Shown: positions 12,696 through 42,159 of the stretch, piece by piece
Layout of the letters: each line of letters starts with the position of its first letter
How positions within the stretch are numbered: the stretch's first letter is position 1
IMG/VR virus record: IMGVR_UViG_3300043185_000025
Reading direction: 5' to 3' (one strand)
DNA: 47,780 nt
Source: a virus
Translations under genes and position numbers: made by a program
Notes under the pieces: model-generated
The model's database searches: none
Told to the model about the DNA's origin: nothing
Seen by the model: only the letters and a program-made list of their open reading frames with translations

Positions 12696-12697
12696 GA

Positions 12698-19300: not shown

Positions 19301-21126
19301 AATCCGCCTTGTTTAACGATAAAATCCAGCAATGACTCTCCATAAACGTCTTTGTCGGTTGGCACGTCACCGGAACGTAACCGATCCAAGAATACGTCCA
19401 GGGCGTCCGTTTTTGCGTGTTTCTCCAACACGTCTGGCAATGGGCGGACGATCCTTAAATCTCCATAACGCTGTTCCAGCAATTTCTGGGCTCGTTCTCC
19501 TCCGGCTTGACCCAACACACGGGAAACAGCAGAGTGGATGGACGCGTAAGCTTCAGCCGTGCTTCGGTCGGTACCAGTAGAAATAAGCTGACCGACAATA
19601 TCTTCACGCACGCGATCCGTTTCTGTGTCAGCATTTATTCCCGATTCTTTGACTAATTCTTTCTCTATTTCTTCGGCCTCGCGTTGGGTCAACTCGTCTG
19701 AGTTGAAGCGAATATCCGGCAGCAACGCTTTCCCATGTTCGGTCGAGGCGAGCTGGGTGGCGTACCGTGACATGGGGATAACGATATCAGTGCCAGCGGT
19801 GATGGCTTCTCGATAGGCGGTTTTCCCAATGATGGATTCGGCGATAATGGCTGGATCGGTATTAACGCTTTGCCAATAAGCCGTCCAACGCTCCACGGGG
19901 ATCATCACGGATTCAGCCGGGGTGCCTTCCACCATGCCCTCGACGTACTTGGCGAAGCTTTCTGGGTCTCGTTGGCGAAGTTTTGAGTTCGCGGCGAGGT
20001 CGTTTATTTTCTCGATAAACGTTTTATTTATTTTAGGTCTTTCCGATTCGTCTTTGGAAACGGCGAGTGCAGCGGCATTTATTCCGCCCGTCAAGACAGT
20101 TTGGGTGATGGTGGAAATTAACGTGGAATAGACCGCGCCGGGGCGTTCTGCCAAGTATTCTCCCCATGTCTTTTCGGGGTTCGCCACAGCAGTGTCGATG
20201 GCGTCCTGAACAAGCGTGGCGACTTGCTCACTGGGAATTTCTCTTGCAAGAAGCCCTGTAAGGAATTTACCTGCCCCAAGTTTCCCAAGGTTCTTAACCA
20301 GGAATCCCATCGGCAGCAATTCTGTTGCGACTTCAGTCGCTCCCTCACCGACGGAACCTAAAGCGGCTTCTCCTGGGGTCGCGCCTCTTGCCCGGTATTT
20401 CCCGTAAGCCTGTGATTGAGCTTCAAGACCCATCAGACCAAGCATGGGGACGGGGCTGCGGGTTGCGATGGACGCCGCCAAACCTGGGGCCGTGCGAGCG
20501 AAACTTACGGTTCCGCCGTAAATGGCCTCTACCGTTTCTGACTCGAATTCCGGTTTTGCCATTTCCTCGATACCGCGAGACTGAAGATACTTTCTGATCG
20601 TGTCCTGTCTGCGAACCTCGGTCTTAGCGGGGTCTTCCTGAATTCCTGGAATACCCACGTCTTGCATCTCAAGTTGCATACTCTTCTTGGTCTGCTTCGC
20701 GCCCTCACGGAAAGAAATGGCGACTCCGCTTAACCAAGAGAAAACACCTGGCGTCGGCCGATACGGTTCTTTCCACTCGCCGAATTCTCGTATACGAGCT
20801 TCCATGTCTTTGAGCGATTCGGTGTCATCGTGGGCGATCTTGGCGAACTCAACGTCTTTAAGACGTTCCGCGAGATAGGGCGAACCTTCCACCAGAAGGT
20901 CGTATTCGTTGAGTTTCTGTTTTTTGGAAACTTCGTCAAGGTTCCGTTCAACGACTTCGAGCGGAATGCCGGTCTTAGTGGAAAGCTTCCTCGCCTGGGC
21001 GACGGATTCAGGGTTCGACTGAATCGCTCGCACGGTGGACGCACGAATCCCCTGAACATCCGACTCTCGTTTTAACGAAGAATCGTATTCGTTTTCGTTT
21101 CTTAATATTTCATCGTATTCGTTCAT
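13339..21126 (-). CDS. Giant internal virion/ejection protein, polyvalent type, with a zincin HExxH motif and C-terminal TM helices
   Basis: A single 2595-aa ORF at the position of T7 gp16. HESGH is encoded at 17086..17100. Hydrophobic helices FMLLMVIPTALSTIGG and LVYSMVMYGAAMIPIV are encoded near 13620..13776. All plus-strand ORFs inside it are short shadows. Confidence 0.7.
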   Translation of the reverse strand: MNEYDEILRNENEYDSSLKRESDVQGIRASTVRAIQSNPESVAQARKLSTKTGIPLEVVERNLDEVSKKQKLNEYDLLVEGSPYLAERLKDVEFAKIAHDDTESLKDMEARIREFGEWKEPYRPTPGVFSWLSGVAISFREGAKQTKKSMQLEMQDVGIPGIQEDPAKTEVRRQDTIRKYLQSRGIEEMAKPEFESETVEAIYGGTVSFARTAPGLAASIATRSPVPMLGLMGLEAQSQAYGKYRARGATPGEAALGSVGEGATEVATELLPMGFLVKNLGKLGAGKFLTGLLAREIPSEQVATLVQDAIDTAVANPEKTWGEYLAERPGAVYSTLISTITQTVLTGGINAAALAVSKDESERPKINKTFIEKINDLAANSKLRQRDPESFAKYVEGMVEGTPAESVMIPVERWTAYWQSVNTDPAIIAESIIGKTAYREAITAGTDIVIPMSRYATQLASTEHGKALLPDIRFNSDELTQREAEEIEKELVKESGINADTETDRVREDIVGQLISTGTDRSTAEAYASIHSAVSRVLGQAGGERAQKLLEQRYGDLRIVRPLPDVLEKHAKTDALDVFLDRLRSGDVPTDKDVYGESLLDFIVKQGGLKDQGRELSARDMQKVRVGLVNDKGRTLDDIAELAVEHGYLSERDPNLLLEAISKEMMGKKVYRQGKQDADLLNVRAAIEQLDDHLRTLGVNVKEMDNAAIKKMLQSDPEKGKELFQGSLKDYLFQSEKPIWFSALEKGIESAKQAKATAKDWKAIIPKLAGVKADEIEATGLNEWLDMQTGQVTKESVLEFVRQNGVQVQEMTLGDNQAERDALAEALHRAERRRDIAEIDLNYVHENLSQLDSANLSHWAYEAATGDASAERKIDLLKLGSARKAVDAYGKAMAEWHEIREKLDTIQNTKFASYQLPGGENYRELLLTLPETSSDKQKYIDADNAFRAYQEELRQKYGSDEIILRKATPEEARRLDELGKPIRDIKSKQNKGFRSSHFDEPNILAHVRFNERTDAEGKRVLFIEEVQSDLAQKGRKEGFKEGENFKPHVYSPEEFDVTQTDAQWVTRDKLGHERVVGKGVVDGDKGAREYFARWLTGLEKEMAKNDGIVRSSQVPSAPFVTKTEAWTMLAMKRMIRYASENGFDRIAWTTGEQQAARYDLSKQVEAITWQKQGDRYQIFVYPKTGNQIEKNLAPSEIQDFVGKEVSDKITGSGKDTGVLRGLDLKVGGEGMKAFYDQMLPQVVNKYVKKWGAKVGETVLSKFTGTKSPDDMSDGELLGALDEPAKGYGVHSLDITQAMSDAVMQGQPLFQKKKDIKRGAIRFGQDRKFTIELFQKADLSTFLHESGHFFLELFGDVYSDLKTIEEDKLTQDQRRVIDDFDAALKWLGVESREQIKTEHHEKWAKGFEAYLLEGKSPSTELRGVFAKFRAWLVYLYRSVKLDVRMNDQIRGVMDRLLATEEEIENANRENEIIPVFTDPADVGMSDAEFSAYRRIVEEANKKAKERLQQKLMNEIRRGQEAWWKDERDKIKSEVLEELNKQHGYIAEAILKNGKMPDGSDLPDGMPPMKLDSKSVHDRNGKDFIKRLPKGIMAKEGGVDPDVAADILGFESGDKLLLELAGLRPKKALAEAETDKRMEERYGSMLLDGTIQAEATEAVLSDHRYKVIDAEIKALRKRVREVKPYVKAEQNKQRDERRRGLAMLTVPMASQSVVKQMADGVIAQKRIRDIRPDGYLMAIRRAAKEAVKLAGKGDYQGALMEKQRELLNLELYRSANDALDRIEKGKEYLSKFDKKSVRDKMRGEAVNQIDDLLSRFDLRRRSLKAIDAERETLEQFVKNESDRLAAVTPDLPGFIKNETYRKNYKDLSVDEMTGLVDSVKQLERLARREQEQYLAIRQMNFEQERGTVLDRIRQFHPEAFEQVNGVWVAKKQAPDRIPTISKAAETLGDKGAGEFLNSETILNLLEGGDYGDVERSLFGRMSDRSNWKATKLAEIYKKLKPLFKAYGLAERRQFARKDIGTDIGIPVTRENAVVVALLYGNKEGRERLMNYGWSAAQIKQIIALLDEKDLRLVDGIWKLFDEDLWPELKDLNERTRGKAPPKVEPISYQTKHGPARGGYFRLKYDTDLSERAHHFDESQAVQAILGGSLGMTAKTNQGTSEQRQEGVKLLPRLDLGVFSETVNETVHDLAYREAVADTMRMLNDKEVQNAIKTAAGIPAYRTLVTRVREVAAPPRNPTGFIEKTLSIARKNTIVTLLSGARTALLNITGVASVYARSFEKESPVSAALLTRELGKFFSWRMNEMYEFATSHSEYMRHRFNNYDRDLQDMARKLTVNGKILPDTYQFLWLMGMTDRAVTVPIWNASFAEGMKRYKNDPKQAVEYADHIVRQTQGSGRDVDLPKIMSGHGGYGQLKKVFTMFQSYSNAQLGQLIRAKAISAKEAKENRTMAVSKFTARFMLLMVIPTALSTIGGREDDDLDDEDWFKKLVYSMVMYGAAMIPIVRDLSAYAWSLFDKDIANYGLKISPVQSAGEGLGKGAVSLVDIVSGEGDKKDTKNLIMGISYAVGLPGKQISDTVLGAEAFLQGEAGPEAVVFGPD

Positions 21127-27470: not shown

Positions 27471-27845
27471 TTACGCAAACGTAGAAGTGATCGTCCCACC
27501 GGTCGAAAGCGCGGCACCCGCCGTGCTGACGGAACCGAGTACGCCCATGTAGGTCACGATACTAGACCCCAACGTAGTCCATTGGTAACCGATCAACAGG
27601 TCTCCAGGTCGCATGCCGATGTACAAGGCATCCGAAAAGAAGTTACTGTCCATAGTCGCCGTTGAACCGTGAGAAGAGGCGTACAACCACACCGCCCCGC
27701 CCTGCGTGTTGTAGGCACTGCGCGACCCGTCCGACGGAACCGCCGTCGAAAGTTGCGTGCTCGCCGGAGCGCCGGAAAAGCGCGGCACAATACAACGCGG
27801 AGGATTGGCCAGTGAAGTCGCTTGGGTAGAACCTAAATATGCCAT
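27471..27845 (-). CDS. Ser/Thr/Gly-rich small protein next to the capsid gene (decoration candidate)
   Basis: AAGGAGG RBS. 124 aa, lying immediately downstream of the major capsid gene. Confidence 0.5.
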   Translation of the reverse strand: MAYLGSTQATSLANPPRCIVPRFSGAPASTQLSTAVPSDGSRSAYNTQGGAVWLYASSHGSTATMDSNFFSDALYIGMRPGDLLIGYQWTTLGSSIVTYMGVLGSVSTAGAALSTGGTITSTFA

Positions 27846-28904: not shown

Positions 28905-29831
28905 TTAGCCCTTAATCTTATCCCGAGCCGCCACTAATTGGCGGTAGCGCTCTTGATTCTTCTCGGCATTTGGCCCCTTCCAATAATCTGAATTGGCATC
29001 GGCCATTTTGGCGTTCCATTGAGTTATTTCGCTTTCCAGCTTATCTGGACTATTTCCCGAACCCGGTATTAAAGTTGCTACCGGGTTTATTTCCCTCGCC
29101 AAGCCGGAGAGCAGTTTTGCGAACTCGACGTTGGTGTCGACGGCGATACGAATCCGTTCCCTTAATTCGGAATCGGCCGGAACCCGTCCATCCAACAAAT
29201 TATCAATGGTCGTTCTGTTTAACCTGTACTCTGGACCCCACTCGGCCCGCAGGGCGTCTTCGGTTTCCTTTCGGACTTGGGCGTTATGCTCGGCTCGGTT
29301 TTCGGCCTCCTTGGTCTGAAAATCGAAGTACCACTGCACGGCGGCACTGGCGACGTCATTTGGCAAATTCTTGGTATGGGCGTATGCCAGAAAATCATCG
29401 ACCACGGGTTTGTCTTCTTCGCCAACGGCGATACCCGGAGCCAGTTTAAGATCATACTTATCCGGGGATAACGGTATTCCGTGTTCTTGGCGCCAGGCGT
29501 TCTTCTGTTCATCCGATCCCTTGTCGGGAAAAGGGGAAACGGTCTTCAGCTCCCCGGAAGAAAGACGCTGCTCCAAGGCGCGTGCTTTCTTCCAAATATC
29601 GGAGGGTGAGGCGTATCGTTCGAGTTGTTTAAGTTCTTTTTCGTCGTTGTTTGCCAGATCTTGGCGCCACGTGTCCGGCCACGGCGATTTGGCTTTGTCT
29701 TGTAGTTTAGCCTGATCTTGCGTGGTAATAACGGCATTCGCCGCCGTGGTATCTGTGGAGGATACAGAGCCTACACCACCCGTGGCGCCACTAAGCTCAT
29801 CGGTTGCGGCGTGTTCTTTGGGAAATTTCAT
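28905..29831 (-). CDS. Scaffolding protein candidate
   Basis: 308 aa, acidic and helical. Lies between the portal and the capsid gene. Confidence 0.5.
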   Translation of the reverse strand: MKFPKEHAATDELSGATGGVGSVSSTDTTAANAVITTQDQAKLQDKAKSPWPDTWRQDLANNDEKELKQLERYASPSDIWKKARALEQRLSSGELKTVSPFPDKGSDEQKNAWRQEHGIPLSPDKYDLKLAPGIAVGEEDKPVVDDFLAYAHTKNLPNDVASAAVQWYFDFQTKEAENRAEHNAQVRKETEDALRAEWGPEYRLNRTTIDNLLDGRVPADSELRERIRIAVDTNVEFAKLLSGLAREINPVATLIPGSGNSPDKLESEITQWNAKMADANSDYWKGPNAEKNQERYRQLVAARDKIKG

Positions 29832-30120
29832 CTTGTTTACTCCTCAGTGTTGAAACGTTCAAAACAGACATCGTGACGATATTCAACCCCACGGCGCGGC
29901 GTCCCTCGGCGAACGCCGTATCGTATGGATTGTTTGAACGATATGACGGCTGGTAGGTAGAACAGGCGGACTCCACCAACCATTTAACAAACCTCTTTTG
30001 TTGTTCCGGGTTGGCTTCGCCCCGCAATAAGGCTTGTAGAGCTACAATATCGGCTAAATCATATTGCGGAGGCTTCCACGGCGCCCGATCTTTCAGCGAG
30101 GGTGTTTTATTCTCTATCAT
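29797..30120 (-). CDS. Hypothetical protein between portal and scaffold
   Basis: ATGA-coupled to the portal stop. Confidence 0.5.
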   Translation of the reverse strand: MIENKTPSLKDRAPWKPPQYDLADIVALQALLRGEANPEQQKRFVKWLVESACSTYQPSYRSNNPYDTAFAEGRRAVGLNIVTMSVLNVSTLRSKQDEISQRTRRNR

Positions 30121-31739: not shown

Positions 31740-32089
31740 TAGCCAAGGGTGTCGTCCGAGAGAATGGTGCTGAGACGCCCTCCACTAGACTGCCTGGAAT
31801 ATCTGCGCCTACGCTGCGCGCGTTCGAGATCGGTGTCGCGTCCGGGAATAGGAGTGGGCTTCGGAATAGCCGCTATAGCCGCAGCGGCTGCATCGTCGGA
31901 TTCCTTCGCTAACTTTTTCTCCCGGCCTTCGTAGTAGCCAACATCGGTTGTGTCAACCCCACGCTTCTTTCCGTATTTCTTCTTCGCAGCGCCTGCCCCA
32001 GTATATGCAACTAATGGATCAATTTTCGAGACGCTACCACTGCTCATCGTCTCGTCAAACTTATCAACTGTTCTGGCCAACCCAGTCAT
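31739..32089 (-). CDS. Hypothetical small basic protein between terminase and portal
   Basis: ATGA overlap with the terL stop and TAATG overlap with the portal start. Confidence 0.5.
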   Translation of the reverse strand: MTGLARTVDKFDETMSSGSVSKIDPLVAYTGAGAAKKKYGKKRGVDTTDVGYYEGREKKLAKESDDAAAAAIAAIPKPTPIPGRDTDLERAQRRRRYSRQSSGGRLSTILSDDTLG

Positions 32090-33705
32090 TTGTGTCTCCT
32101 ATTGTATCGTTGACTATGAATTATCCTTGGTTGATGGTTCGTCTGGGCTTTATCGCGCCATTGCTTTCCGTCCGTTAAGTATGTCGGGCCAATACTCCAC
32201 GATATAACTATTGCATCACCGCGATCCGTGGATCTGCCCAGTCGTTCGCAAACATCCTCTTTCGGCTCTACTTTAATGCCGTTTGACGTTATCTCGAACG
32301 TCGGCGCGGTTAGATCGGCGACTAACTTTGGATCGTCTGGTAATGCGATGGGCGATCCCACGGGCTGTGATGGGTCCAGCGCTTCGCGAAATCTCCAATA
32401 AACTTCCGACCGTTTGTTTGTAAACTTCAATTGACGGTCATTAGTTCGGTTAACTGATTGTTCGGCGCCTTTGTGGGCTCTAACCTCAACGTCATTTGCT
32501 TTGAGATGCTCGAACGTTGCGCCTCCGTAACCGCCGCCCATGTCGATCCCAACGATGGCCTTGTCGCGACGATTCTTGACCACCAGCGCGGCAACATCAG
32601 TTCCATACGGAGTATCGCGTCCAGGAACAGCGATTAATGGTGGGAACCAACCGTCAAATCTTGGCGCCAAAACCGTTTCATCATCCCCCCCTTGAGCAGG
32701 ATCAACGCCAATGGCACACATTGGCACGGAGTCCGGTGGCCTCGGCGTCCAGCGTGCTTGCGCTTGTTTAATCCAATCAGTCGGGATCACCTGATTTTGG
32801 GCATCTTTAAATGCGGTTCGGAATCCACCCAACAATAAAGACCTGTAGGGCTCGGGCAACGCTTCCAATTCGCGCGCATAATCGGTTTTGGCGTAGTACG
32901 GATTATCCTCAACCGAAGCTGGAATATAAGTATAGGATTTAGGCCGATAAGATTTCCCGTTAATTGTTACGGGGCTACTGCTTTTTACCCATGTTTGCTT
33001 GCCGTGCTCGTCCGAGATTGCCCAACGCAGATCCCCTGGCTTGGCAGGATCCGGGTATTGCGGGTCCAGCCACGGAGCAAACATTTGTATCACCCATAGA
33101 CCTTCCGCAGTTAGTGGGGGATTTGTGGCAAGAACGGTGCGCACCCGTTGGCCTTCTTCTTCCGTTCGGTTCCATCCCATCAGGAATCTAACCTGAGATT
33201 CGGCAAAGTGAGTGGCTTCGTCGATGCCCAACAGGTCTCGCCCTTTGCCCATCCAACTTTGCTCGTCTCCAACCCTGTGAGCGGCGCCAAAATCAATCAC
33301 CCGTCCATCATCTGTTTTAAGCTGAGGCGGGGGTGAACCATTGAAACCCTCTCGGCCACCGTTTATTTTCAGGGCGTCTTCGACTAAACGGCCGATGTCT
33401 GAATATTTCCGGCGCAATAGCAAGGTTCGTTTATGGGAATTGAACGCAAGCCCGAGCAATAGCTGGCTCTTTCCACCGCCGGGCTCGCCTCCGTACAACA
33501 ATACGTCAGCCTCGCTTAAATACGCTTCGGTTTGCGGACCAGGATTTGGAATCCAGCGATAATCTTTGGTGTTGGTATACGCTTCTCTAACTGCCGTGTC
33601 TTTATCCTTGGGCGGCAGAGAAACGTAACGATCCAGAACCTCATCAAGACTGATGGATAGCATTAAGAAATGATTCTCCGTGGTCTGCGCCGTTACCCTT
33701 TGCAA
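32086..33705 (-). CDS. terL: Terminase large subunit
   Basis: Walker A YGGEPGGGKS, Walker B LLGIDEATHF, coupling motif VLATNPP, and the C-terminal nuclease-like segments CAIGVDPAQGGDDETV and RGDAIVISW. The start may instead be M15 (33663). Confidence 0.8.
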   Translation of the reverse strand: MQRVTAQTTENHFLMLSISLDEVLDRYVSLPPKDKDTAVREAYTNTKDYRWIPNPGPQTEAYLSEADVLLYGGEPGGGKSQLLLGLAFNSHKRTLLLRRKYSDIGRLVEDALKINGGREGFNGSPPPQLKTDDGRVIDFGAAHRVGDEQSWMGKGRDLLGIDEATHFAESQVRFLMGWNRTEEEGQRVRTVLATNPPLTAEGLWVIQMFAPWLDPQYPDPAKPGDLRWAISDEHGKQTWVKSSSPVTINGKSYRPKSYTYIPASVEDNPYYAKTDYARELEALPEPYRSLLLGGFRTAFKDAQNQVIPTDWIKQAQARWTPRPPDSVPMCAIGVDPAQGGDDETVLAPRFDGWFPPLIAVPGRDTPYGTDVAALVVKNRRDKAIVGIDMGGGYGGATFEHLKANDVEVRAHKGAEQSVNRTNDRQLKFTNKRSEVYWRFREALDPSQPVGSPIALPDDPKLVADLTAPTFEITSNGIKVEPKEDVCERLGRSTDRGDAIVISWSIGPTYLTDGKQWRDKAQTNHQPRIIHSQRYNRRHK

Positions 33706-34525
33706 CCGGTATCGGTACAGAATCGGTGACGGTAGTTTGTGTCTGCGTTGGTATAGGCAGGTTGAACAGAGCGTTAAACTCCGTCACCGAAGCTTCAGAA
33801 CGATCATGGATCCAGGTGCCCATCACGTAATTCAGATCGTCAATGGCGCCCTGTAAAAAGCTCTGGTTGATTCGCGCGGCATCGGCATCGCGGATCGCTT
33901 GTTGCATCCTAGATTCTAGCTCTTTTTTTCGTGCCATTAACTTTATGTGCATATGATTGTGCTCACAAACACCGTACAGTGGCGGCGGCAATAACAAGTC
34001 GGATTCCGGCGGAACGGCAATCGTAATGCCAAGTTGCTGGGCAATTTGGATGAAATGGATGCAGCCGGGCCTTTGCTGGGCCCATTCCTCGGTCGCGGCC
34101 ATGTCCACGCCCCACAGACCGATAACCGGCGATGTGCGGTCGCCGCTGGCACGGGCCAGTAATATTTCGTCGATTGCCATCGCCAACATCCATGCAATCG
34201 AGGATGTGAAAAAATAAGAACCGTATTTTGCGGTTAGTCCGGCAACGTCCAACTTCACTGCTCCGTGAATTTCCGGCACTGGATCAACCATCACGACGCA
34301 CTGTTGCCTTGCCATCCACGCGCAATATTCTGGCGAAAACCACGGGACTTGGGTATCGGGCTTACCGATTACGCCAGGCTCCCAGCGGTGTAACTCAAAA
34401 AATTTGTCACACCTTGGAAGGATTGGGTAGGTGCCGGGACTGCATGCCCAGATTTTGAACGTCGGATCGCCAAACGGCGCAAGCCGGATGCTGGACGGGG
34501 CGCTGCCAATTATCGCAATACGCAT
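33644..34525 (-). CDS. Rossmann-type protein, possibly a DUF115/MptE-like (Maf-type) glycosyltransferase
   Basis: Start refined to MRIAIIGSAPSS (TAATG coupling). The motif FTSSIAWMLAMAI...VIGLWGVDMA resembles the G-x-D core of DUF115/Maf-family enzymes as I recall them. The family assignment is unverified. Confidence 0.3.
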   Translation of the reverse strand: MRIAIIGSAPSSIRLAPFGDPTFKIWACSPGTYPILPRCDKFFELHRWEPGVIGKPDTQVPWFSPEYCAWMARQQCVVMVDPVPEIHGAVKLDVAGLTAKYGSYFFTSSIAWMLAMAIDEILLARASGDRTSPVIGLWGVDMAATEEWAQQRPGCIHFIQIAQQLGITIAVPPESDLLLPPPLYGVCEHNHMHIKLMARKKELESRMQQAIRDADAARINQSFLQGAIDDLNYVMGTWIHDRSEASVTEFNALFNLPIPTQTQTTVTDSVPIPVAKGNGADHGESFLNAIHQS

Positions 34526-35016
34526 TAGGTTGTACCGTTGAGAGCCATTTCCGTCGAGCACGCCGAAGAAAAACCAGTTGGGCGGCTAACAATTGCGTAG
34601 ATCGCGCTAGACACGCCGATTAATTGCAGGAACAACCCGCCACCCTGAGCCACGATTGTGGTAGTAGTAGAATTAGCGCTGGTGCGTAACGCAAAACTGC
34701 TGTCGGATCGCTTAATTGTGCGAATTCCGGTTGAAGTTGAACCCGTGTACAGCAGTTTACTTACACCAACAATCGGTGGATCCAGCAACCAGGTGTCGTC
34801 CGTTGACGTATCGACGGTGGTCAGACCGTAGGCCGTAATATTTGTTGCGGTAGTATCGGAAGTGGCGGCCTGGACCTCGAGCACGGCACCATGAGGCGAC
34901 TGAATCCCGTCTGGACCCACCAAATATTCAATTTGGGCGCTTGATCCCTGGGCAAGGCCCAAGCGGCGACCGTGAACTGACGTGCGAATTTTGCTGCGTA
35001 ATGTTTCTCTGCTCAC
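34525..35016 (-). CDS. Ser/Thr-rich hypothetical protein
   Basis: 163 aa with S/T runs (ATSDTTATNITAYGLTTVDTSTDDT and TSANSTTTTIV). Co-oriented and coupled to the downstream gene. Confidence 0.5.
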   Translation of the reverse strand: MSRETLRSKIRTSVHGRRLGLAQGSSAQIEYLVGPDGIQSPHGAVLEVQAATSDTTATNITAYGLTTVDTSTDDTWLLDPPIVGVSKLLYTGSTSTGIRTIKRSDSSFALRTSANSTTTTIVAQGGGLFLQLIGVSSAIYAIVSRPTGFSSACSTEMALNGTT

Positions 35017-35089
35017 TGTAAATCTCCTTTATAGTTGCGATGCCGGTATTCTGGCTGCTTGATAACCGGTGCCCGACCGGAGCGGTCCT

Positions 35090-35455
35090 CTATCGTTTCC
35101 AAAACTCCACCGTAACGATCCCGGAAGTTGGTGATACCAGGGAAAATCCAGTGCTTGTAGCTGTGCTACCCAGTTGATAAAACTGGGAATCGTTTCCGTG
35201 AATGACGTGATTGATGCTCGTGGTGGCAGTAGTTGCGGCCATCGACGTGCTTGGCCACGTAGCGCTGGTTGAATGGAAATTTACGGCAAACGAATAAGCG
35301 GCTCCAGCCGTGGTGGCGCCACTCAATCGCATCACATTGGCGCCAGAAGGCCAGTCGAAAGCTTGACCTGTATTAGCTGCCAATACCGCCGTAGCCACCG
35401 TATCGGCTGGCATAGGGATTAAAAACGATGGGTTCCAGGTTCCGAACGTTCTCAA
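35090..35455 (-). CDS. Ser/Thr/Ala-rich hypothetical protein
   Basis: TTG start with GGAG 7 nt upstream. Contains the S/T run STSATWPSTSMAATTATTS. Confidence 0.45.
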   Translation of the reverse strand: MRTFGTWNPSFLIPMPADTVATAVLAANTGQAFDWPSGANVMRLSGATTAGAAYSFAVNFHSTSATWPSTSMAATTATTSINHVIHGNDSQFYQLGSTATSTGFSLVSPTSGIVTVEFWKR

Positions 35456-35456
35456 G

Positions 35457-35627
35457 TTAATCTCCTAAAATACTGTCGTTTTTGGCGGTGTCCGTGCCTT
35501 TCTTGCGAGCTTTGCGCCACTCTTCTTTGTTCATCTTGGGGCGATCCTTGTAAGGGCCGGCGCCCTCGCTCCACTCGATCAAGTAGTCCATGTATTCCTT
35601 GTGCTCATTTTCGCCAGGATAAGCCAT
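35457..35627 (-). CDS. Hypothetical 56-aa protein
   Basis: Below the track cutoff. The ATG directly follows the TAA of 35628..36002. It translates to MAYPGENEHKEYMDYLIEWSEGAGPYKDRPKMNKEEWRKARKKGTDTAKNDSILGD. Confidence 0.45.
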   Translation of the reverse strand: MAYPGENEHKEYMDYLIEWSEGAGPYKDRPKMNKEEWRKARKKGTDTAKNDSILGD

Positions 35628-36002
35628 TTATTTAACGCCCTTTCGAAGAATAAAAGCGATTCGTTTGGCTACCTCAACATCGTTTGTTTTTTCCGGGATT
35701 AAGTCTTTGCCATCCTTACCTGTTACCTCAACAGCCGCTAACTTAGGATGACAGTATGGTGCAGCGTCTTTTGCGGCGGCTAATCTGAGAGAGTGCCAGC
35801 CGGAAAGCGCAGTGATCGTTTCGACAGACAATGGCGCTGAAGCCAATTGCTCTTTGAGTTCGGGTGGAACGTCGGCGCGCATCACTTGGAGAAGGTACTC
35901 AAGCGGCGTAATACCTGATTCAGCAATTTGCTGAACGCGCTCAACTGTTGCTTTATTCGGTGTTCCTTTTTTTCTTCCACCTGTTTTTTTTCCAAAAGCC
36001 AT
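35628..36002 (-). CDS. Small DNA-binding protein, possibly the terminase small subunit
   Basis: Basic N-terminus GGRKKGTPNK, then PLEYLLQVMRAD...AAKDAAPYCHPKL, which I recall from proteins annotated as small terminases. First gene of the late operon. Confidence 0.35.
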   Translation of the reverse strand: MAFGKKTGGRKKGTPNKATVERVQQIAESGITPLEYLLQVMRADVPPELKEQLASAPLSVETITALSGWHSLRLAAAKDAAPYCHPKLAAVEVTGKDGKDLIPEKTNDVEVAKRIAFILRKGVK

Positions 36003-36088
36003 TAAATATTTCCGTAAGTCATTGAATCTACAAAATCTCTACTAAAGAAAAAAACAAATTAAACAAAAAATACACTATAGAATTCAAA

Positions 36089-36103
36089 AGTGTTAACGAA
36101 AAA
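36089..36103 (-). promoter_or_regulatory. Conserved 15-mer (minus strand ATTTTTCGTTAACAC), copy upstream of the late operon
   Basis: Identical to 28888..28902. Lies about 90 nt upstream of the terS-like start. Confidence 0.45.
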
Positions 36104-36114
36104 TAGTTGTTGTG

Positions 36115-36174
36115 GTGACAATCTACGTCACATTGTGACAATTTTTGGTAAATAAGTGACGCATTACATCACTT
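36115..36174. promoter_or_regulatory. Cluster of GTGAC/GTCAC operator-like repeats in the AT-rich switch region
   Basis: GTGACAAT occurs at 36115 and 36135, with GTCAC at 36127 between them. AAGTGA-9 nt-TCACTT forms an inverted repeat at 36154..36174. Confidence 0.45.
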
Positions 36175-36330
36175 GTGGATAACTGTATTTCTTATTTATC
36201 AATAGTTTAACTGTTGGCATGCGTGCTGCATTGTATTGTGTGTAGCACACAACAACCAGACGCGGTTATAGTATCCGGTAGTTATAACTTCCGATTTGTC
36301 AAAAAAAGATTGATTCATGAGGCGCTAAGC

Positions 36331-36468
36331 ATGTTTAATGCATTAATTCTATTACTATTAATGACTCTTTCGGGCTGTGTGATCGGCGAGCTGCATTTGT
36401 TGTCCGTGCAGTATACCGATGCTTCAACTAATACTAAATCTTCTTGCACAAAGAATAACAATAAATAG
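36331..36468 (+). CDS. Small lipoprotein (45 aa) on the opposite strand
   Basis: Internal start of track ORF 36214..36468. It begins MFNALILLLLMTLSGC, with lipobox LSGC. GAGG lies 9 nt upstream. The surrounding DNA is AT-rich. Confidence 0.45.
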   Translation: MFNALILLLLMTLSGCVIGELHLLSVQYTDASTNTKSSCTKNNNK

Positions 36469-36471
36469 CTT

Positions 36472-36753
36472 CTACAAGCTTGAAAACTCTATAAATCTCT
36501 TCTCTGTCAATTGCGTTCCGCATACTTTTGCGTGCAAAATCAATAGCGCATGGCCGTCTGCAAATCTGGGGGAACAGCCGCGCATAATCCCTTGGAAACT
36601 CGACCATCCTCTTCCAATCGCCTCGGCCTGTTTTGAGTAGGGATAATCCCTCTGTTTCATATCCTCAATTATTGTTTTCCAGTCTATCTTCAACGGGACG
36701 ATATCAATGTGAAGTAAATAACTGTAATCACTTGATTTTGCGGTGGTGTGCAT
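36472..36753 (-). CDS. Hypothetical protein, possibly Ner-like HTH
   Basis: Starts 1 nt after the synthase stop. The segment DWKTIIEDMKQRDYPYSKQAEAIGRGWSSFQGIMRG loosely resembles Ner-type HTH proteins. Confidence 0.45.
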   Translation of the reverse strand: MHTTAKSSDYSYLLHIDIVPLKIDWKTIIEDMKQRDYPYSKQAEAIGRGWSSFQGIMRGCSPRFADGHALLILHAKVCGTQLTEKRFIEFSSL

Positions 36754-36754
36754 A

Positions 36755-37747
36755 TCAGCCGGTGAAAGAACTCTCTATTGGACTCCCAGCTTTTATCAAT
36801 TTCTTGGCCTTGGATCCCAATATTTTACGGTAATCTTTTGGATGAGCCCCCTTCGCGGGGCGTCTCAAGCCGGTATTCGACGTTGTAAATAATTCCCCGG
36901 TGTGAATATCTTGTAGGGCGTACACGGATCGGCGCAACTCGAATGAGTTTGACTCAGAATTTGACAGACCGTATTGGACCTTTCCGCAGGCGGCAGCGAC
37001 GGATTGAACTCCAACAACCATCTGCCAAAATGTCTCGGCATCTGCCGCGAAATGACTGTCTGGACCAACTTCCGAATCCAGCCGTAAATGCTTTTCTATC
37101 ACCGTGGCACCGAGCGCCGTGGCCGCCATCGGCACAACGACCCCACGGGTATGGTCTGACACGCCTACGCGACAATTAAATCTTTCACGCATATCTGGAA
37201 TTGTCAGCAAATTGTAGTCGGATGCGGACGCCGGGTAAGCCGATACGCATTTCAACAATGTGACCTTTTTTCCGTACCCCTCACAAATATCAAGAGCCGA
37301 AGCTATCTCCGCTACGGATGCCATTCCTGTCGAAAAGATAAGCTCTTTTCCAGTTTTGGCGACTGATTCTATTAGCTCAAGATCAGTCAGCTCAAAACTT
37401 GCGATCTTGTACCGGGCACAGCCCAAGCTCTCAAGAAAATCCACCGCTTCTTGAGAAAAAGGCGACGAGAAGCACTCAATCCCTGAATCCTTGGCGGCCT
37501 GGAACAATGCCCGGTGCCAGGCTAACGGCAAGGCGGCCTCTTGATAGAGGCTGTACAAGTTTTTCCCTGACCAGGGACCGTTCTTGATAACGTAATTTTT
37601 ATCCGCCACCATCGAATCGGGTGTAAAGGTTTGTAGTTTTATGGCGTTTGCGCCGGAACGGGCGGCGGATTCGATCAGCCTCATGGCACGATCTAGGTTT
37701 TGATTATGGCTAGCGCCCATTTCGGCAACGATAAATGGCGCCATCAT
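36755..37747 (-). CDS. pseI: Nonulosonic acid synthase (NeuB family, most likely pseudaminic acid synthase)
   Basis: FIVAEMGASHNQNLDRAMRLIESAARSGANAIKLQTF, KIASFELTDLELI and VGVSDHT, plus a C-terminal SAF-like tail. The neighbouring genes are pse-type. Confidence 0.8.
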   Translation of the reverse strand: MMAPFIVAEMGASHNQNLDRAMRLIESAARSGANAIKLQTFTPDSMVADKNYVIKNGPWSGKNLYSLYQEAALPLAWHRALFQAAKDSGIECFSSPFSQEAVDFLESLGCARYKIASFELTDLELIESVAKTGKELIFSTGMASVAEIASALDICEGYGKKVTLLKCVSAYPASASDYNLLTIPDMRERFNCRVGVSDHTRGVVVPMAATALGATVIEKHLRLDSEVGPDSHFAADAETFWQMVVGVQSVAAACGKVQYGLSNSESNSFELRRSVYALQDIHTGELFTTSNTGLRRPAKGAHPKDYRKILGSKAKKLIKAGSPIESSFTG

Positions 37748-38194
37748 CTATAGCTCATAAATAATTTGTTTTTGGGTAAACCCAAGCTTTTCGAACAATT
37801 TGATTGATCTTGAATTCTTTGGGTTTATGTTAGCAATAAAACTCCCGCTCCGTTTCCCCTTCGTTTCTGGAAGGGGAGTATGGTTCTGAACCAAGGCAGC
37901 CACTGACTTAAACCCAAATCCACGGCCACGCGCCTGATTAAAAATAAAAACCCCAATCTCGTTGAGCTTCGTCAGATAACAGGTACCAACCGGCGAACCT
38001 TGGTTGTAAACCAAGTACCAATACCGATACGGACGCTTTGCCACGTAAGCAACGTGTTCGGCCCACGTTGGTAACAATTTGTGACTAATGTTAACGTTCT
38101 GATCTTTCTCCGAAGATCGCTCCCTTAAAATTTCGTACAAAATCTTCTCTGCTTCCGGAACTAAGTAAATACTTCTTAGTTCAACTTCGCTCAT
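37748..38194 (-). CDS. GNAT N-acetyltransferase (PseH-like role plausible)
   Basis: Acetyl-CoA motif region QARGRGFGFKSVAAL and C-terminal NPKNSRSIKLFEKLGF. ATGA-coupled. The DNA is visibly more AT-rich than its neighbours. Confidence 0.6.
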   Translation of the reverse strand: MSEVELRSIYLVPEAEKILYEILRERSSEKDQNVNISHKLLPTWAEHVAYVAKRPYRYWYLVYNQGSPVGTCYLTKLNEIGVFIFNQARGRGFGFKSVAALVQNHTPLPETKGKRSGSFIANINPKNSRSIKLFEKLGFTQKQIIYEL

Positions 38195-38931
38195 AATCTG
38201 ACCTCCACGCCGTTATCGCGCAAATAGCAAGCAACCGTTTTCGGGGTTTCTTCGGTAAAGGCAAACATTGATCCAATGGCCACGGCGGATGCTCCAGCAT
38301 GGATGGCTTCGAGCGCATGGCTAAGCATACCGCAGCCGCCGTGGGCGATGACAGGGATATCCACCGCACCGCTAACCTTGCGTATCAATTCTAAATCAAA
38401 TCCATTCATCGTTCCTTCTCTTTCAATAGAAGTAAGAAGTATTTCTCCTGCGCCACTTCGCTCCAATTCTTTCGCCCATCCCACGGGATCGAACCTAGAT
38501 AATTTTTGTCCACAATGGGTATAAACACCCCTGCCTTTCACATCCAGCGCGGCAACAACAGCCTGCTTTCCGTATTTCTCCGATATATCCTCAATCAATC
38601 CATCAAAAGCTTTTGATCCAACAGCTATTTTATCTGCTCCGGCCTCGAACAATTTTTTCGCGTGCTCGAACTTTGATATGCCGCCGCCAATCGTGAGTGG
38701 ACAAAAACAATTAGTTGATAAATCAAATGCCGTCTTGTAATCAGGCTCTCTTCCCTCTGGGGTGGCCGTGATGTCCAGCATAATCAACTCGTCCACGCCG
38801 CGTGAATTGTGGATTAACACAGCCTGCCGGGCATGCCCAATGGAGCGCCACGACGAGAATTGTTTTCCCTTAAAAAGCTGCGCCCCCCTATAAAGCAGCG
38901 TGGGAATAACTCTTTTTGCCAGGCCCATCAA
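38191..38931 (-). CDS. HisF-like (beta/alpha)8 cyclase subunit of the WbuZ/flagellin-glycosylation-island type
   Basis: KRVIPTLLY...GVDELIMLDITAT...LTIGGGI...GADKIAVGS...GAGEILLTSIEREGTMNGFDL...IPVIAHGG all align with HisF hallmarks. Confidence 0.75.
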   Translation of the reverse strand: MMGLAKRVIPTLLYRGAQLFKGKQFSSWRSIGHARQAVLIHNSRGVDELIMLDITATPEGREPDYKTAFDLSTNCFCPLTIGGGISKFEHAKKLFEAGADKIAVGSKAFDGLIEDISEKYGKQAVVAALDVKGRGVYTHCGQKLSRFDPVGWAKELERSGAGEILLTSIEREGTMNGFDLELIRKVSGAVDIPVIAHGGCGMLSHALEAIHAGASAVAIGSMFAFTEETPKTVACYLRDNGVEVRL

Positions 38932-40006
38932 ACTCCTTCAACAAAGGTCTTCCGTTTTCCACGCGACTGAACAAATCCCAATTCGTGAAACGATCCAGGA
39001 TTGAAATTAATTCGTCGCGAGTAAGGCCAATCGCTGACAATCCTTCTTTCATCAGGACGCCCGAATAATACCCGGTCAGCAATCCATCCCTGTCCGCCAC
39101 AATATCGAGTGCCTCGGCACGGTCTATTAATCCGTAACGGATGTCCACGGACAACTGCGCGGCAAGCCTGCCATAGCCAAATTTCCGATAGCAGGCGTGA
39201 TCGTGGATTAAGGTTTGCCAGTTATCCAAGTTTTCATGCGCCCACCAGTTAGCCAAGCTTGGCAAGCTCTGCTTCATCCCCGCTTCTCGGGCGATCTTGG
39301 CGTTTTGGTGGGAATCCCACGGAATGTATTGTCCCAAGAAATGGGCCTCTACATTTCCAATGTCGCGGGGAAACTGATAACTCTGCATATCAGACTCTGT
39401 GATCCCTTCGAGACCGACGAAATCGGACGGACGAAGGCCCAAAAAACCACCAAATTCCATCGTCCATCTTCGATCCATCTTTCTATTGTCTTCGGAACCG
39501 GGCGGGCCACCGTATTCTCGTTGCGGGGATTCCCCGTAGAAAATAAGATTTATCCCGAGCGCCTTAGCCATGCGAAAAGGAACAGAAAATATACTCGCGT
39601 GCTCCGGCCAAGATATGTCGCCAACCAGCTCAAGCCCTAGACGATTAAGTTTTGATCGAATCCGTCTATTCGGTGTTACCTCGATGGTAGTAGCGAACTT
39701 GGCCAGGTTATCTATGTTGGCCCTTCCTATGGCCGTCAGGTGGCAGGTGCTGGCCGTTATCACGGTTACGTCGGCACCAAGTCCAAGCAGTGTCAAAACC
39801 TGATAATGGCTGTCCTTGCCGCCGGAGCACGGGACAATACAACGGCCTTGATGCTTCTCTAAGAGGTTCAGCAGCTCCTGCTTGCGGGAATCCCAGTCTA
39901 TTTCTGGCCGGGCTTTGTAGGCGCGGCAAGCGGAGCATTCTCCGGATTCGTCGAAATGCAAATCTGGTTTAGTGTCTGGCAGGAGACAGGTTCGGCAGCG
40001 TCTCAT
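38888..40006 (-). CDS. pseA: N-acetyl-sugar amidotransferase (PP-loop ATPase; PseA/WbpG/WbuX family)
   Basis: N-terminal Cys cluster CRTCLLPDT...CSACRAY followed by the PP-loop CSGGKDS. Confidence 0.7.
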   Translation of the reverse strand: MRRCRTCLLPDTKPDLHFDESGECSACRAYKARPEIDWDSRKQELLNLLEKHQGRCIVPCSGGKDSHYQVLTLLGLGADVTVITASTCHLTAIGRANIDNLAKFATTIEVTPNRRIRSKLNRLGLELVGDISWPEHASIFSVPFRMAKALGINLIFYGESPQREYGGPPGSEDNRKMDRRWTMEFGGFLGLRPSDFVGLEGITESDMQSYQFPRDIGNVEAHFLGQYIPWDSHQNAKIAREAGMKQSLPSLANWWAHENLDNWQTLIHDHACYRKFGYGRLAAQLSVDIRYGLIDRAEALDIVADRDGLLTGYYSGVLMKEGLSAIGLTRDELISILDRFTNWDLFSRVENGRPLLKEFDGPGKKSYSHAAL

Positions 40007-40081: not shown

Positions 40082-40660
40082 CTATTTCCTCAGTAGCCAG
40101 TAACTGATCCCGTTCGCATCAAACCCGCTCCCTTCGCCAAGTAAACCGTATTCCACCAGAGTAAGCCCCATTTCTTCGTACAATTTTCCATAGTTCCTTT
40201 TCCAAAGCTTCCCGGCATGGCCTCGATACTCTACCTCTGTCTCTTCTGCGGCTTCGTATTCAACAGCAAGAACGTAGTCACAGCTTGCGTCTACGATGCG
40301 ACGCATGAAGGCTTTTAGGTCTTGGGGGGCGATGTGGATGAGGACGCCAGATGTGAAAACCAATTCGGTACTTGCTGCGACAAAGTTTCTTGGAATCAAA
40401 ATAACGTCTAGTCCTGCGGTTAGTGCAATCCATATAGCGGATTCGTTCACGTCTTCCCCAGCTACCTGTACATGGTCGTTCTCGTACCTGATGGCCGAAA
40501 GGTTGTACCCAACATTGCAACCAACCTCGTACACAGACCGAGCGCCGGTTTTCTCAATGATTTTGTTCCAAAAAGGAACACGACTCTTCCACATGAAACG
40601 ATTCCTAGCGGTGTATTGATTACCGAATTCTCCTTTCCAAAATTCAACGGTATTGTTCAT
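40082..40660 (-). CDS. SAM-dependent methyltransferase (pseudaminic-acid-biosynthesis-associated methylase type)
   Basis: Start refined to MNNTVEFWKGEFGNQY. SAM motif I is VYEVGCNVGYNL. It resembles the Pse-associated methylase family as I recall it (TIGR03587). Confidence 0.6.
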   Translation of the reverse strand: MNNTVEFWKGEFGNQYTARNRFMWKSRVPFWNKIIEKTGARSVYEVGCNVGYNLSAIRYENDHVQVAGEDVNESAIWIALTAGLDVILIPRNFVAASTELVFTSGVLIHIAPQDLKAFMRRIVDASCDYVLAVEYEAAEETEVEYRGHAGKLWKRNYGKLYEEMGLTLVEYGLLGEGSGFDANGISYWLLRK

Positions 40661-40661
40661 T

Positions 40662-40976
40662 TTACAAAACCTCGCTAAGAATAGTGTCCACAACTTCAAC
40701 CGCTATCTTCCCCGGTGGCCATCGCTTGTCGGTTAAATCGCGGATAATGTGCGACGCCCTTGTTATTAACATGGTTCTCTTCTGTTCGCTCAGAATACTT
40801 TTTTTGTCGTTCGGCACAATTCCGTAGTGGCAATAATATGCAGCTCGGGCAATGCTTTCGGCCAACTGCCTGGCAGTCTCCGGATCAATCACAATTCGGT
40901 TACATTCCGCCGTGGTTTCCAGCACGACGTTTCCATCGTGGTCGCTAACGCTAAGTCTTGTATTCGTGGGGGTCAT
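40662..40976 (-). CDS. Hypothetical protein within the sugar island
   Basis: 104 aa. ATGA-coupled upstream, with its stop 1 nt before the methylase ATG. No motif recognised. Confidence 0.5.
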   Translation of the reverse strand: MTPTNTRLSVSDHDGNVVLETTAECNRIVIDPETARQLAESIARAAYYCHYGIVPNDKKSILSEQKRTMLITRASHIIRDLTDKRWPPGKIAVEVVDTILSEVL

Positions 40977-41320
40977 TCAAAAACGGTCATCTTTGACAGA
41001 TCTAGATAGCGGAACCAACGGGCACAGTCCCAAACGGGAAGCGGATCCAACTGATACTCGCCGATCCATTCTTCATCTCTAAAAATGACGCCAGCACCGG
41101 CATTCATAACAGACATGGGAACGGATACATAAGTGCGTTTCGGTATCTCAATAGAAATGGTCGGAATAGGCGCAAAAGATTTTCCGCCTTTACCCCACAA
41201 GCACCACGCGCATGCCAGCATCAACGCCGTCGTGCAACTCGTCGTCGTCACGGCATACTTTGCGCCGGTATATTCACACAAAGCCTGCTCGAAATCTTTG
41301 ACAACTTGGTATGGATTCAA
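40973..41320 (-). CDS. DegT/PseC-like aminotransferase N-terminal fragment (115 aa; remnant or repurposed domain)
   Basis: VVKDFEQALCEYTGAKYAVTTTSCTTALMLA and IEIPKRTYVSVPMSVMNAGAGVIF match the first third of DegT-family enzymes. The ORF ends before the PLP-lysine region. The TTG start overlaps the pseB-like TGA (TTGA). Confidence 0.5.
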   Translation of the reverse strand: MNPYQVVKDFEQALCEYTGAKYAVTTTSCTTALMLACAWCLWGKGGKSFAPIPTISIEIPKRTYVSVPMSVMNAGAGVIFRDEEWIGEYQLDPLPVWDCARWFRYLDLSKMTVFE

Positions 41321-42159
41321 TGGATACGCCCCAATCCTTCACGAATTTCGTCGACTGTCATGCGTCTGGCGGTGTCGCTGGAAATCATCGAGTCCATTGA
41401 TTCGTGCTTCTTCTCGAACACACCAAGACCGATTATCTTCATCTTAGCTCCCATTGCTTCGGCTAAATCCCCAAGCCTGAACGCGGGAAGTTCTGGTATT
41501 TTGAGTTCGCCGCCTTTCATTGTCTCAATGGTGCTGAGAACTAAATCAACGGCCTCTTCCACTGTCATCCAAAATCGCGTTACGTCAGGATCTGAAACGG
41601 GAACCGTGTCACTGTGTTTTAGTATCTGCGTCCACACGGGCAAAACGGATCCTGTCGATCCAATCACGTTCCCGTAGCGTACACAAGCGAACAATGGCCC
41701 ACGAACCCCCCTCGTGTTATTCGCCGCAAGGATTAATGATTCGGACATAGCTTTGCTATGTCCGTAGGCAGACACCGGAGAAAATGCCTTATCGGACGAA
41801 AGTCCGACAACTTTTTTAACTCCCGCTTCGGTCGCCGCTTCAATAACATTGATCGTACCGACGACATTGGTACGAACCATCTCTGTCGGATTATAAAAAC
41901 CAGTTTGGATTCTTTTTAGGGCAGCAGCGTGAACGACTACATCTACACCATCCATCGCGCGACGTAATCTATCTTTGTCGCGGACACAACCAACAAAATA
42001 TCGTGTGCGTTCATTTTCCCCAAATTCACGCTCCATCAAAGCGTGCTTGTGTTCGTCCCTTGAATAAATGCAGATTCTTCCCGTATTACCTAATAATAAA
42101 TTTTTTACCAGAGCCTTCCCAAAATACCCAGCACCACCAGTTATCAATATTGAATTCAT
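41317..42159 (-). CDS. pseB: UDP-sugar 4,6-dehydratase of the PseB/FlaA1/CapD extended-SDR type
   Basis: ILITGGAGYFG, IYSRDEHKH, FVGCVRDKDRL, HAAALKRIQ, SSDKAFSPVSAYGHSKAMSE, VRYGNVIGSTGSVLP and VTRFWMTVEEAVDLV. Confidence 0.7.
   Translation of the reverse strand: MNSILITGGAGYFGKALVKNLLLGNTGRICIYSRDEHKHALMEREFGENERTRYFVGCVRDKDRLRRAMDGVDVVVHAAALKRIQTGFYNPTEMVRTNVVGTINVIEAATEAGVKKVVGLSSDKAFSPVSAYGHSKAMSESLILAANNTRGVRGPLFACVRYGNVIGSTGSVLPVWTQILKHSDTVPVSDPDVTRFWMTVEEAVDLVLSTIETMKGGELKIPELPAFRLGDLAEAMGAKMKIIGLGVFEKKHESMDSMISSDTARRMTVDEIREGLGRIH

Follow-up and report, generated by a model that had tools for sequence, protein, structure and literature searches.

What is encoded between the small- and large-terminase genes of the virus record IMGVR_UViG_3300043185_000025 (IMG/VR), and on what do the products act? 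The whole stretch analysed (47,780 nucleotides, nt; hereafter the window) carries at this position a gene for a protein of 293 amino acids (aa), here called X293, preceded by genes for two Ser/Thr-rich products of 121 and 163 aa (p121 and p163). A sequence-only reading of the window had proposed X293 as a candidate glycosyltransferase, possibly of the Maf/DUF115 kind, and the two Ser/Thr-rich proteins as its targets. The answer favoured here, on sequence comparisons and predicted structures and with a probability of about 45%, is that X293 would be a late-expressed nonulosonate transferase modifying the spike-like p163.

The genes in question lie in a single block on the minus strand, transcribed in the order small terminase (TerS), 56-aa product, p121, p163, X293, large terminase (TerL), a 116-aa open reading frame (ORF) and a T7-type portal gene. 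The first six of these are:

36002..35628, minus strand: probable TerS, 124 aa, first gene of the late operon (phrog_15261, E 1e-12; phrog_641 terS, E 0.018)
35627..35457, minus strand: Lys/Glu-rich ORF of 56 aa between terS and p121, also gene-called on a near-identical contig
35455..35090, minus strand: p121, 121 aa, TTG start, Ser/Thr-rich and of low charge
35016..34525, minus strand: p163, 163 aa, GTG start with an AAGGAG ribosome-binding site, predicted all-beta
34525..33644, minus strand: X293, 293 aa, candidate nonulosonate transferase
33663..32086, minus strand: TerL (Terminase_6N, phrog_979), ATG at 33663

The coordinates and strand given earlier for the 121-, 163- and 293-aa products agreed with the ORF list. 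The three genes had been described as translationally coupled and lying between terS and terL. The gene order was borne out, with the TerS assignment of the 124-aa product only probable from its profile matches; Terminase_2 TerS proteins occupied the same position in the related loci L008 (E 1e-20) and L027 (E 2e-30). Four ORFs, not three, lie in this interval, the additional one being the 56-aa ORF, for which no Pfam or PHROG family match was found. Overlaps were restricted to the p163 stop and X293 start (TAATG) and to the X293 3' end and the TerL ATG (20 nt); p121 and p163 were separated by 73 nt. An independent gene call on the near-identical contig returned genes of 163, 293 and 525 aa, and p121 was not called there. 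In the closest cultured relatives (Acidovorax AP1 and Limnohabitans DC33) terS lies directly against terL with no such genes between them, and in the cultured relatives with about 40% TerL identity (BPP-1, AP1, DC33 and Caulobacter Rauchvirus-like phages) terS abuts terL and X is absent. Within the main clade of X-bearing phages, a TerL homologue was located downstream of X, on the same strand, in 77 of 80 IMG/VR loci (median gap of 154 nt); some of the main-clade loci carried 1-1.7 kb of additional DNA between X and TerL.

X293 belongs to a large family. It gave no Pfam match at E <= 0.1 and no PHROG match, and 1,563 matches in a 90%-clustered database, the top 120 of them at 52-67% identity and none named; at 50% identity the family comprised 3,294 clusters (E <= 1e-3). 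The start of X293 at MRIAIIGSAPSS was correct, as 41 homologues shared the N-terminal M-[KR]-I-A. The motifs singled out in the sequence-only reading, RIAIIGSAPSS at the start of the protein and VIGLWGVDMA (residues 134-143), were both present as described. Among 63 diverse relatives, with identities as low as 33%, nine residues did not vary: G7, P17, H46, A117, G139, D141, E147, Q151 and Y184. E146, beside the invariant D141 and E147, was strongly conserved across the family. With this pattern of invariant polar and glycine residues, X293 looks like an enzyme. The AlphaFold2 (AF2) model (predicted local distance difference test, pLDDT, 88.6) showed a Rossmann-like core (residues 1-190), a conserved helix of 47 residues (191-237) and a disordered tail; inspection by eye, with no predictor run, revealed no signal peptide and no long hydrophobic segment.

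The closest structural and sequence matches of X293 pointed to sialyltransferases of family GT42. In a Foldseek search of the X293 model against the PDB, the top match was CstII (2x63; E 3.3e-3, probability 0.94; template-modelling (TM) score 0.27-0.30, root-mean-square deviation (rmsd) 11.4 A); against viral models its own uncharacterised family came first, followed by an "MptE-like" viral protein (probability 0.99, query-normalised TM-score 0.35). TM-scores of 0.27-0.40 are low, and the fold match is therefore weak on its own. When PDB sequences were searched with the diverse family profile A2 (hmmsearch), the eight best matches were all GT42 sialyltransferases, matched over one motif (E 0.2-0.6), and kinases were absent among the sequence-profile matches. 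A GT42 profile was then compared directly with the X profile using hhalign; for this profile the CstII sequence was checked against PDB 1ro7, 294 relatives were collected and 42 were aligned. The central motif FTSSxAWMxAxAI...IGLWGVD of X was aligned with ITSGxYMCAVAI...IYLSGID of GT42 (P 4.4e-5, probability 69%). The N-terminal 62 residues alone also aligned with GT42 (P 1.3e-3), IAiiGsAPSS opposite IIAGNGPSL and PRcDxwFElH opposite FRCNQFYFED, at residues conserved in both families. The three motifs are collinear.

Like CstII, Cst-I and Lic3 (GT42, PF06002), X293 has a predicted single Rossmann-like alpha/beta domain, is associated with a nonulosonate donor pathway and shows equivalent motifs: the G-x-x-P-S loop after beta1, R-C-[ND]-x-F-x-F-E, and T-S-[SG]-x-x-x-M-x-A-x-A-I...G-[VI]-D. 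Unlike them it has an acidic E-E pair after G-V-D and a long C-terminal helix, and it is not matched by the family hidden Markov model. The substrate sialylated by the GT42 enzymes is lipooligosaccharide; X293, in contrast, comes from a phage and has a virion-type protein as its partner. Several of the collected GT42 proteins matched both PF06002 and PF01973, and the central domain of Maf (PF01973) is known to resemble Cst-II (PMC11339370). The conclusion from these profile and model comparisons is that X293 is related, with much divergence, to the GT42/DUF115 fold group, and by the family models it belongs to neither family. The DUF115/MptE-like resemblance proposed in the sequence-only reading thus survived in the fold (CstII best, MptE-like and thiamin pyrophosphokinase folds next) and in the GT42 motifs, and failed in the family models; the AF2 and Foldseek comparison with CstII and Maf that it had called for placed CstII at the top of the PDB matches with a poor superposition.

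The second component is p163. The p163 and X293 genes are a near-obligate two-gene module across different phage architectures: at least 83 of the 90 loci with X had an ORF of the p163 family as the immediate upstream neighbour of X, distant and SU10-like contexts among them, and the pairing held for distant members at about 34% identity (L089, L090 and L091). In the SU10-like phage L081 the pair followed the SU10 major capsid gene and did not precede TerL, and in L158 X followed the portal and capsid genes. The p163 family (158 members detected) showed five strictly conserved motifs: GRRLGL, ATSDTTGTNI, VDTxTDDTWLL, TGSTSTGIRTI and the C-terminal STEMAINGTT. Its Ser/Thr richness is therefore conserved sequence and not a variable low-complexity tract. 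The AF2 model of p163 was all-beta (pLDDT 74.7), with the conserved motifs in loops between strands, and was matched by Foldseek with probability 1.00 to the N-terminus of CBA120 TSP4, the Pa223 capsid spike, T4 gp9 and baseplate/tailspike adaptor domains. Because these matches are to spike modules, p163 is most likely, on a model of moderate confidence, a small, trimeric spike or decoration module of the virion. It shares with Pa223 gp52 and the N-terminal modules of CBA120 TSP4 a beta-prism (predicted for p163), and with Pa223 gp52 a short N-terminal segment (the conserved GRRLGL in p163); gp52 of Pa223 is a trimeric spike whose capsid anchor corresponds to the first ~40 residues (bioRxiv 10.1101/2025.06.11.659172). 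Unlike these proteins, p163 is just 163 aa long and has no knob or catalytic domain.

Other possible relatives of p163 were rejected. A "WD-40 repeat protein" of a Microcystis phage was not accepted as one; the WD-40 match of the p163 profile in the PDB is probably compositional. In addition, p121 and p163 gave only weak, composition-driven BLAST matches to each other and to fibre proteins, so they were not considered paralogues.

The third component is a group of sugar-biosynthesis genes on the same strand, upstream of terS:

36003..36471, no strand: AT-rich non-coding spacer of ~470 nt (GC content about 0.40) between the sugar island and the terS-led operon
36755..37747, minus strand: PseI, with NeuB and SAF domains (best PDB match pseudaminic acid synthase 8h2c, E 2e-77, vs. 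1e-35 for NeuB)
37748..38194, minus strand: GNAT acetyltransferase, PseH candidate (Acetyltransf_3, Acetyltransf_1)
38931..38191, minus strand: HisF-like cyclase (His_biosynth, E 4e-52)
40006..38888, minus strand: candidate WbpG/PseA-like amidotransferase, 372 aa, no Pfam match
40082..42159, minus strand: remainder of the island (conserved 205-aa protein, 104-aa ORF, DegT/PseC fragment and PseB)
41320..40973, minus strand: truncated DegT/PseC fragment, 115 to ~130 aa, followed by the 104-aa ORF
42159..41317, minus strand: PseB dehydratase (best PDB match H. pylori PseB 2gn4, E 1e-67)

The sequence-only reading had linked this island to a nonulosonate, which agrees with the PDB entries best matched by PseI and PseB; judged from its homologies it is a pseudaminic-acid (Pse) pathway of the acetamidino type. 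The HisF-like and WbpG/PseA-like proteins are the candidates for forming the acetamidino group, and their genes are conserved in the island of related loci; the assignment of the 372-aa protein to the WbpG/PseA family is our assumption. The six-step pathway (PseB, C, H, G, I and F) is incomplete in the window, where PseB, a PseH-like GNAT and PseI are present and no PseG-like domain was detected by Pfam in the island. A CTP_transf_3 cytidylyltransferase gene was present in 18 related loci. With PseC reduced to a fragment, and with neither a cytidylyltransferase nor a PseG-like gene, host enzymes would be needed or the pathway is decaying. Among the window ORFs of at least 90 aa, none showed another glycosyltransferase domain. 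A role in DNA modification was also considered and rejected: domains of the hydroxymethylase, thymidylate-synthase-like and DNA glycosyltransferase kinds were looked for across the window and not detected. The spacer at 36003-36471 may be a late promoter or packaging-site region; a scan of positions 33500-36800 for consensus promoters and for terminators gave nothing above chance.

X and the pse genes occurred together repeatedly. In 28 related loci the available DNA reached at least 8 kb upstream of X, and 25 of them had the island there; among the remaining three, L037 carried WbpG and HisF genes downstream, and L027 and L081 carried none. Both X and the island were also present in loci whose portal and capsid genes diverge strongly, and in L158 the order was island, portal, capsid and X. 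In the reciprocal direction, a scan with a PseI alignment gave 263 viral stretches; X was found in 35 of the 39 fetched loci that carried PseI, WbpG and HisF, and for a 36th (L138) on the same contig (L069). PseI loci without WbpG and HisF (e.g. giant-virus metagenome-assembled genomes, MAGs, and jumbo phages) mostly lacked X. The co-occurrence of this gene with pse genes across related phages, which the sequence-only reading had wanted to see examined, was therefore found in several gene orders within these loci and not in the distant branches described below.

Some loci carried X-like paralogues inside the island itself: in L107 (3523-4197), L110 (2942-3583) and L115 (141-806) they stood beside the cytidylyltransferase, between PseC and it (profile E 1e-14 to 1e-18), and in L150 (6290-7087) a similar paralogue stood beside PseI. 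These proteins (213-265 aa) lack the Asp of GVD (D141), the APSS loop and the C-terminal helix, and may be a second functional class of the X family, judged from their sequences.

From these components the following mechanism can be proposed. X293 would be a cytoplasmic transferase of a phage family branching distantly from the CstII (GT42)/Maf (DUF115) fold. The island would supply cytidine monophosphate (CMP)-pseudaminic acid, the host providing the missing cytidylyltransferase and aminotransferase steps. X293 would bind the CMP-sugar through its G-S-A-P-S-S loop, the R-C-D-x-F-F-E-L-H strand and the T-S-S...G-V-D motifs. Before assembly it would pass the sugar on to the hydroxyl groups of Ser/Thr in p163 and possibly in other virion proteins rich in these residues. 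The resulting particle would carry a nonulosonate-decorated spike. Donor, acceptor, chemistry and virion location are all putative in this scheme. The broader proposal, that a self-contained virion pseudaminylation system (acetamidino-type pathway, GT42/Maf-related transferase family and trimeric spike acceptor) is widespread in uncultured podophages, is put forward with more reserve.

Several results weigh against this mechanism. The GT42 similarity is local, with an hhalign probability of just 69% and, for the CstII superposition, TM-scores of 0.27-0.30 at an rmsd of 11 A, and none of the 63 X family members was matched at E <= 1 by a relevant Pfam model, PF06002 and PF01973 included. His188 of CstII (which we take to be catalytic) and Tyr156 and Tyr162 (presumably phosphate-binding) are invariant within the GT42 alignment, lie outside the confidently aligned region and have no confidently aligned counterparts in the X family; a low-confidence extension of the alignment placed a family-consensus Tyr (W149 in the window protein) opposite Tyr162, with no counterpart of His188. 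The Ser/Thr residues of p163 are invariant residues of beta-prism loops and may be merely structural. No cytidylyltransferase was found in the island of the window (the CTP_transf_3 protein of L008 was unmatched there), and PseC was matched only as a DegT fragment of ~130 aa. Co-occurrence inside one clade is partly shared ancestry. The distant members L081, L095-L101 and L027 lacked pse genes within 10 kb, and the complete genome of a Microcystis phage bearing an X homologue had no pse gene annotated or matched, and no detectable p163 homologue; the gene does exist, to this extent, in phages in which no pse genes were seen, which goes part of the way towards what the sequence-only reading had named as refuting its hypothesis. 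By analogy, such island-less phages could use host CMP-sugars. Finally, thiamin pyrophosphokinases (TPK) scored as well as CstII in Foldseek (probability 0.85-0.96, target-normalised TM-score 0.31-0.40; for 3lm8, 0.96 and 0.39), and the invariant D141 and E147, together with E146, would also suit a metal-dependent phosphotransferase.

These last observations, the "MptE-like" viral match and the distant members without nearby pse genes are what would be expected if X293 had the same fold and another chemistry, acting as a nucleotide-dependent phospho-, pyrophospho- or nucleotidyl-transferase (MptE/TPK-like) on p163 or on a small molecule. The likeness of X293 to the folds of MptE (archaeal 6-hydroxymethylpterin diphosphokinase) and TPK is as strong as that to CstII; however, no sequence-motif match with these enzymes was recovered, the motif matches being specific to GT42 sialyltransferases and not to kinases, and the X family associates with sugar and virion genes, not with cofactor synthesis. 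The association with the Pse island is strong and repeated, paralogues stand beside the cytidylyltransferase, and a phosphotransferase is accordingly considered unlikely. The same paralogues, lying between PseC and the cytidylyltransferase, and the absence of any detected PseG-type domain from the phage island could be taken to mean that X293 is itself a sugar-pathway enzyme, e.g. a nucleotide-sugar hydrolase replacing PseG; sialyltransferase-fold enzymes can hydrolyse their own donor, and PseG is a glycosyltransferase-fold hydrolase. This is judged quite unlikely: the main X lineage is split from the island by terS and lies in the structural/packaging operon, the tie between X and the gene for the spike-like p163 holds as well in phages that have no island nearby, and the island-embedded paralogues may act differently, since D141, the APSS loop and also the C-terminal helix are missing from them.

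A nonulosonate transferase need not act on the virion, and X293 might modify a host structure (flagellin, pilin, lipopolysaccharide or capsule), e.g. in superinfection exclusion. Known transferases of pseudaminic and legionaminic acid (Pse/Leg) modify bacterial surface structures (PMC11339370), and Acinetobacter provides documented cases of phage-encoded enzymes that change nonulosonate glycans of the host (PMC12053666, PMC6586298). The position of X in the late packaging/structural operon, and not in a lysogeny module (after the capsid gene in the SU10-like phage and in L158), its near-obligate pairing with a virion-type spike protein and the apparent lack, by eye only, of a signal peptide or long hydrophobic segment make a host acceptor as improbable as a PseG substitute. 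X293 might also be non-catalytic, an assembly chaperone of p163 or a spike subunit with a degenerate nucleotide-binding fold. Fibre and spike genes are commonly followed by a chaperone gene, and the long conserved C-terminal helix could mediate oligomerisation or binding; but the invariant H46, D141, E147, Q151 and Y184 and the glycine-rich loop in 63 sequences are typical of an active enzyme, and the Microcystis phage has an X gene without a detectable p163, so a non-catalytic role is very unlikely. Nonulosonate transfer to p163 is retained as the favoured role of X293.

The proposal that p121 and p163 are both glycosylation targets started from their composition. Ser plus Thr made up 28.8% of p163 and 28.1% of p121, against a genome mean of 14% (standard deviation 6%), and values within the top five were also given by the 124-aa product encoded next to the capsid (27.4%) and by the 855-aa fibre (26.8%), so the Ser/Thr richness claimed for these four proteins was real. 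Only p163 proved to be a near-obligate partner of X, and its Ser/Thr residues are loop motifs of a folded protein, not mucin-like tracts. Homologues of p121 were found in about 35 loci (tblastn) and were conserved in part of the clade, with the TTG start supported by aligned MR N-termini; p121 may be a virion surface protein. Besides the 124-aa protein and the 855-aa fibre, a Gp80-like fibre protein was also Ser/Thr-rich and of low charge. The 124-aa protein was:

27471..27845, minus strand: Ser/Thr-rich protein of 124 aa, downstream of the major capsid gene (Ser plus Thr 27.4%, charged residues 6.5%)

Its position beside the capsid gene was conserved across loci; judged from composition and position, it may be a further acceptor or a decoration protein.

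In the deposited phage record collection, the only match to X293 was the homologue of the Microcystis phage mentioned above (Mvi-Yong1342-1, PP496355.1; 31% identity, L001:7902-8705), and no main-clade member has been cultured. This homologue stands immediately upstream of terS-terL; the genome encodes a recombinase of the XerD type, and none of its genes is annotated as pse. Its label of "type 11 methyltransferase" is probably a misannotation, as no methyltransferase family matched any of the 63 members. X293 as the small terminase was rejected: hhalign against the TerS of Acidovorax AP1 gave a probability of 1%, and a separate TerS was present in L008, L027 and, probably, the window. Some family members were about twice the normal length (P0121, 570 aa; P0185, 594 aa; P0200, 550 aa), with the profile match split into 2-3 stretches, which suggests an inserted element such as an intein or homing endonuclease; in L089 (1267-1752) an HNH_3 endonuclease gene stood between the p163 and X homologues. 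Two adjacent ORFs of L158 (14952-16270; 279 and 160 aa) were both strong X-profile matches, which may reflect a frameshift, a mistake in the assembly or a partial duplication in tandem.

No cultured phage matched the region in megablast, and related-locus searches with P0231 or a single PseI protein as the query found nothing. A search for the host through prophages in genome contigs gave only four short MAG contigs, probably mis-binned.

Other differences in gene content were seen among the related loci. A small "Gp10-like major coat protein-like" gene (PF21628) was present in L008 (7876-8247), L003 (11198-11485) and 15 other loci and absent from the window, its position varying between the terS-p121 interval in some relatives and the TerL-portal interval in others. 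In L037 the WbpG-like and HisF-like genes (12607-14500) were placed between TerL and portal, not upstream of terS. L096 encoded, in the head-gene block ~3 kb downstream of its X homologue, an 804-aa protein (13407-15821) with methyltransferase, TPR and GT9-like regions, which presumably resembles the FlmG-type TPR-glycosyltransferases.

Elsewhere in the window, a Gp80-like fibre protein (Ralstonia podophage GP4 family) and a Bbp19-like protein were encoded at 12258-12695 and 29797-30120 (minus strand), respectively. By these proteins and by a TerL about 40% identical to those of BPP-1, AP1 and DC33, the phage is a distant relative of the BPP-1-like podophages. The only domain recognised in a 2,595-aa protein (13339-21126, minus strand) was LPD22, a "large polyvalent protein" domain, at the N-terminus; this product is presumably an internal or ejection virion protein.

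The known analogues of the proposed system are virion glycosylation in mycobacteriophages and flagellin pseudaminylation of the Maf and FlmG types. The mycobacteriophage idea is cited in phage genome papers (e.g. PMC11256854). As with X293, a phage transferase in the structural gene block is proposed there to modify virion surface proteins. The mycobacteriophage enzymes are, we assume, classical GT-A/GT-B enzymes using host hexose donors, while X293 is GT42-like and comes with a phage-borne nonulosonate pathway and a proposed dedicated small spike acceptor. Maf enzymes O-glycosylate Ser/Thr from CMP-nonulosonates and also accept CMP-Kdo (3-deoxy-D-manno-octulosonate) and CMP-Neu5Ac (N-acetylneuraminic acid) (PMC11339370). 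By analogy, Maf and X293 would both transfer Pse/Leg from CMP-sugars to surface Ser/Thr without a sequon, and both are encoded beside nonulosonate biosynthesis genes. They differ in the acceptor (flagellin for Maf, a phage spike-like protein proposed for X293) and in architecture: Maf has three domains, the N- and C-terminal ones for flagellin handling (PMC11339370), and X293 a single core in 293 aa with no PF01973 match. In the literature search, no description of nonulosonate glycosylation of a phage particle, or of the X293 family, was found.

If the broader proposal is true, this would be the first nonulosonate glycosylation described for the particle of a bacterial virus, whose surface would show a "sialic-acid-like" sugar of bacteria, and a family with over 3,000 protein clusters would be assigned a function. 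The favoured role would give a working annotation to this family and its partner family, and would account for the presence, in a phage clade, of an island that is costly to carry, with seven or more genes of sugar pathways. Transferases of Pse/Leg are few and poorly understood, and a compact 293-aa enzyme, paired with a defined acceptor of 163 aa, would offer a tractable system for study and perhaps a tool for glyco-engineering. So far, glycosylated virions have been documented mainly in mycobacteriophages; a spike coated with nonulosonate would add podophages of the Gram-negative type and would raise testable questions of shielding, adsorption and host-surface mimicry.

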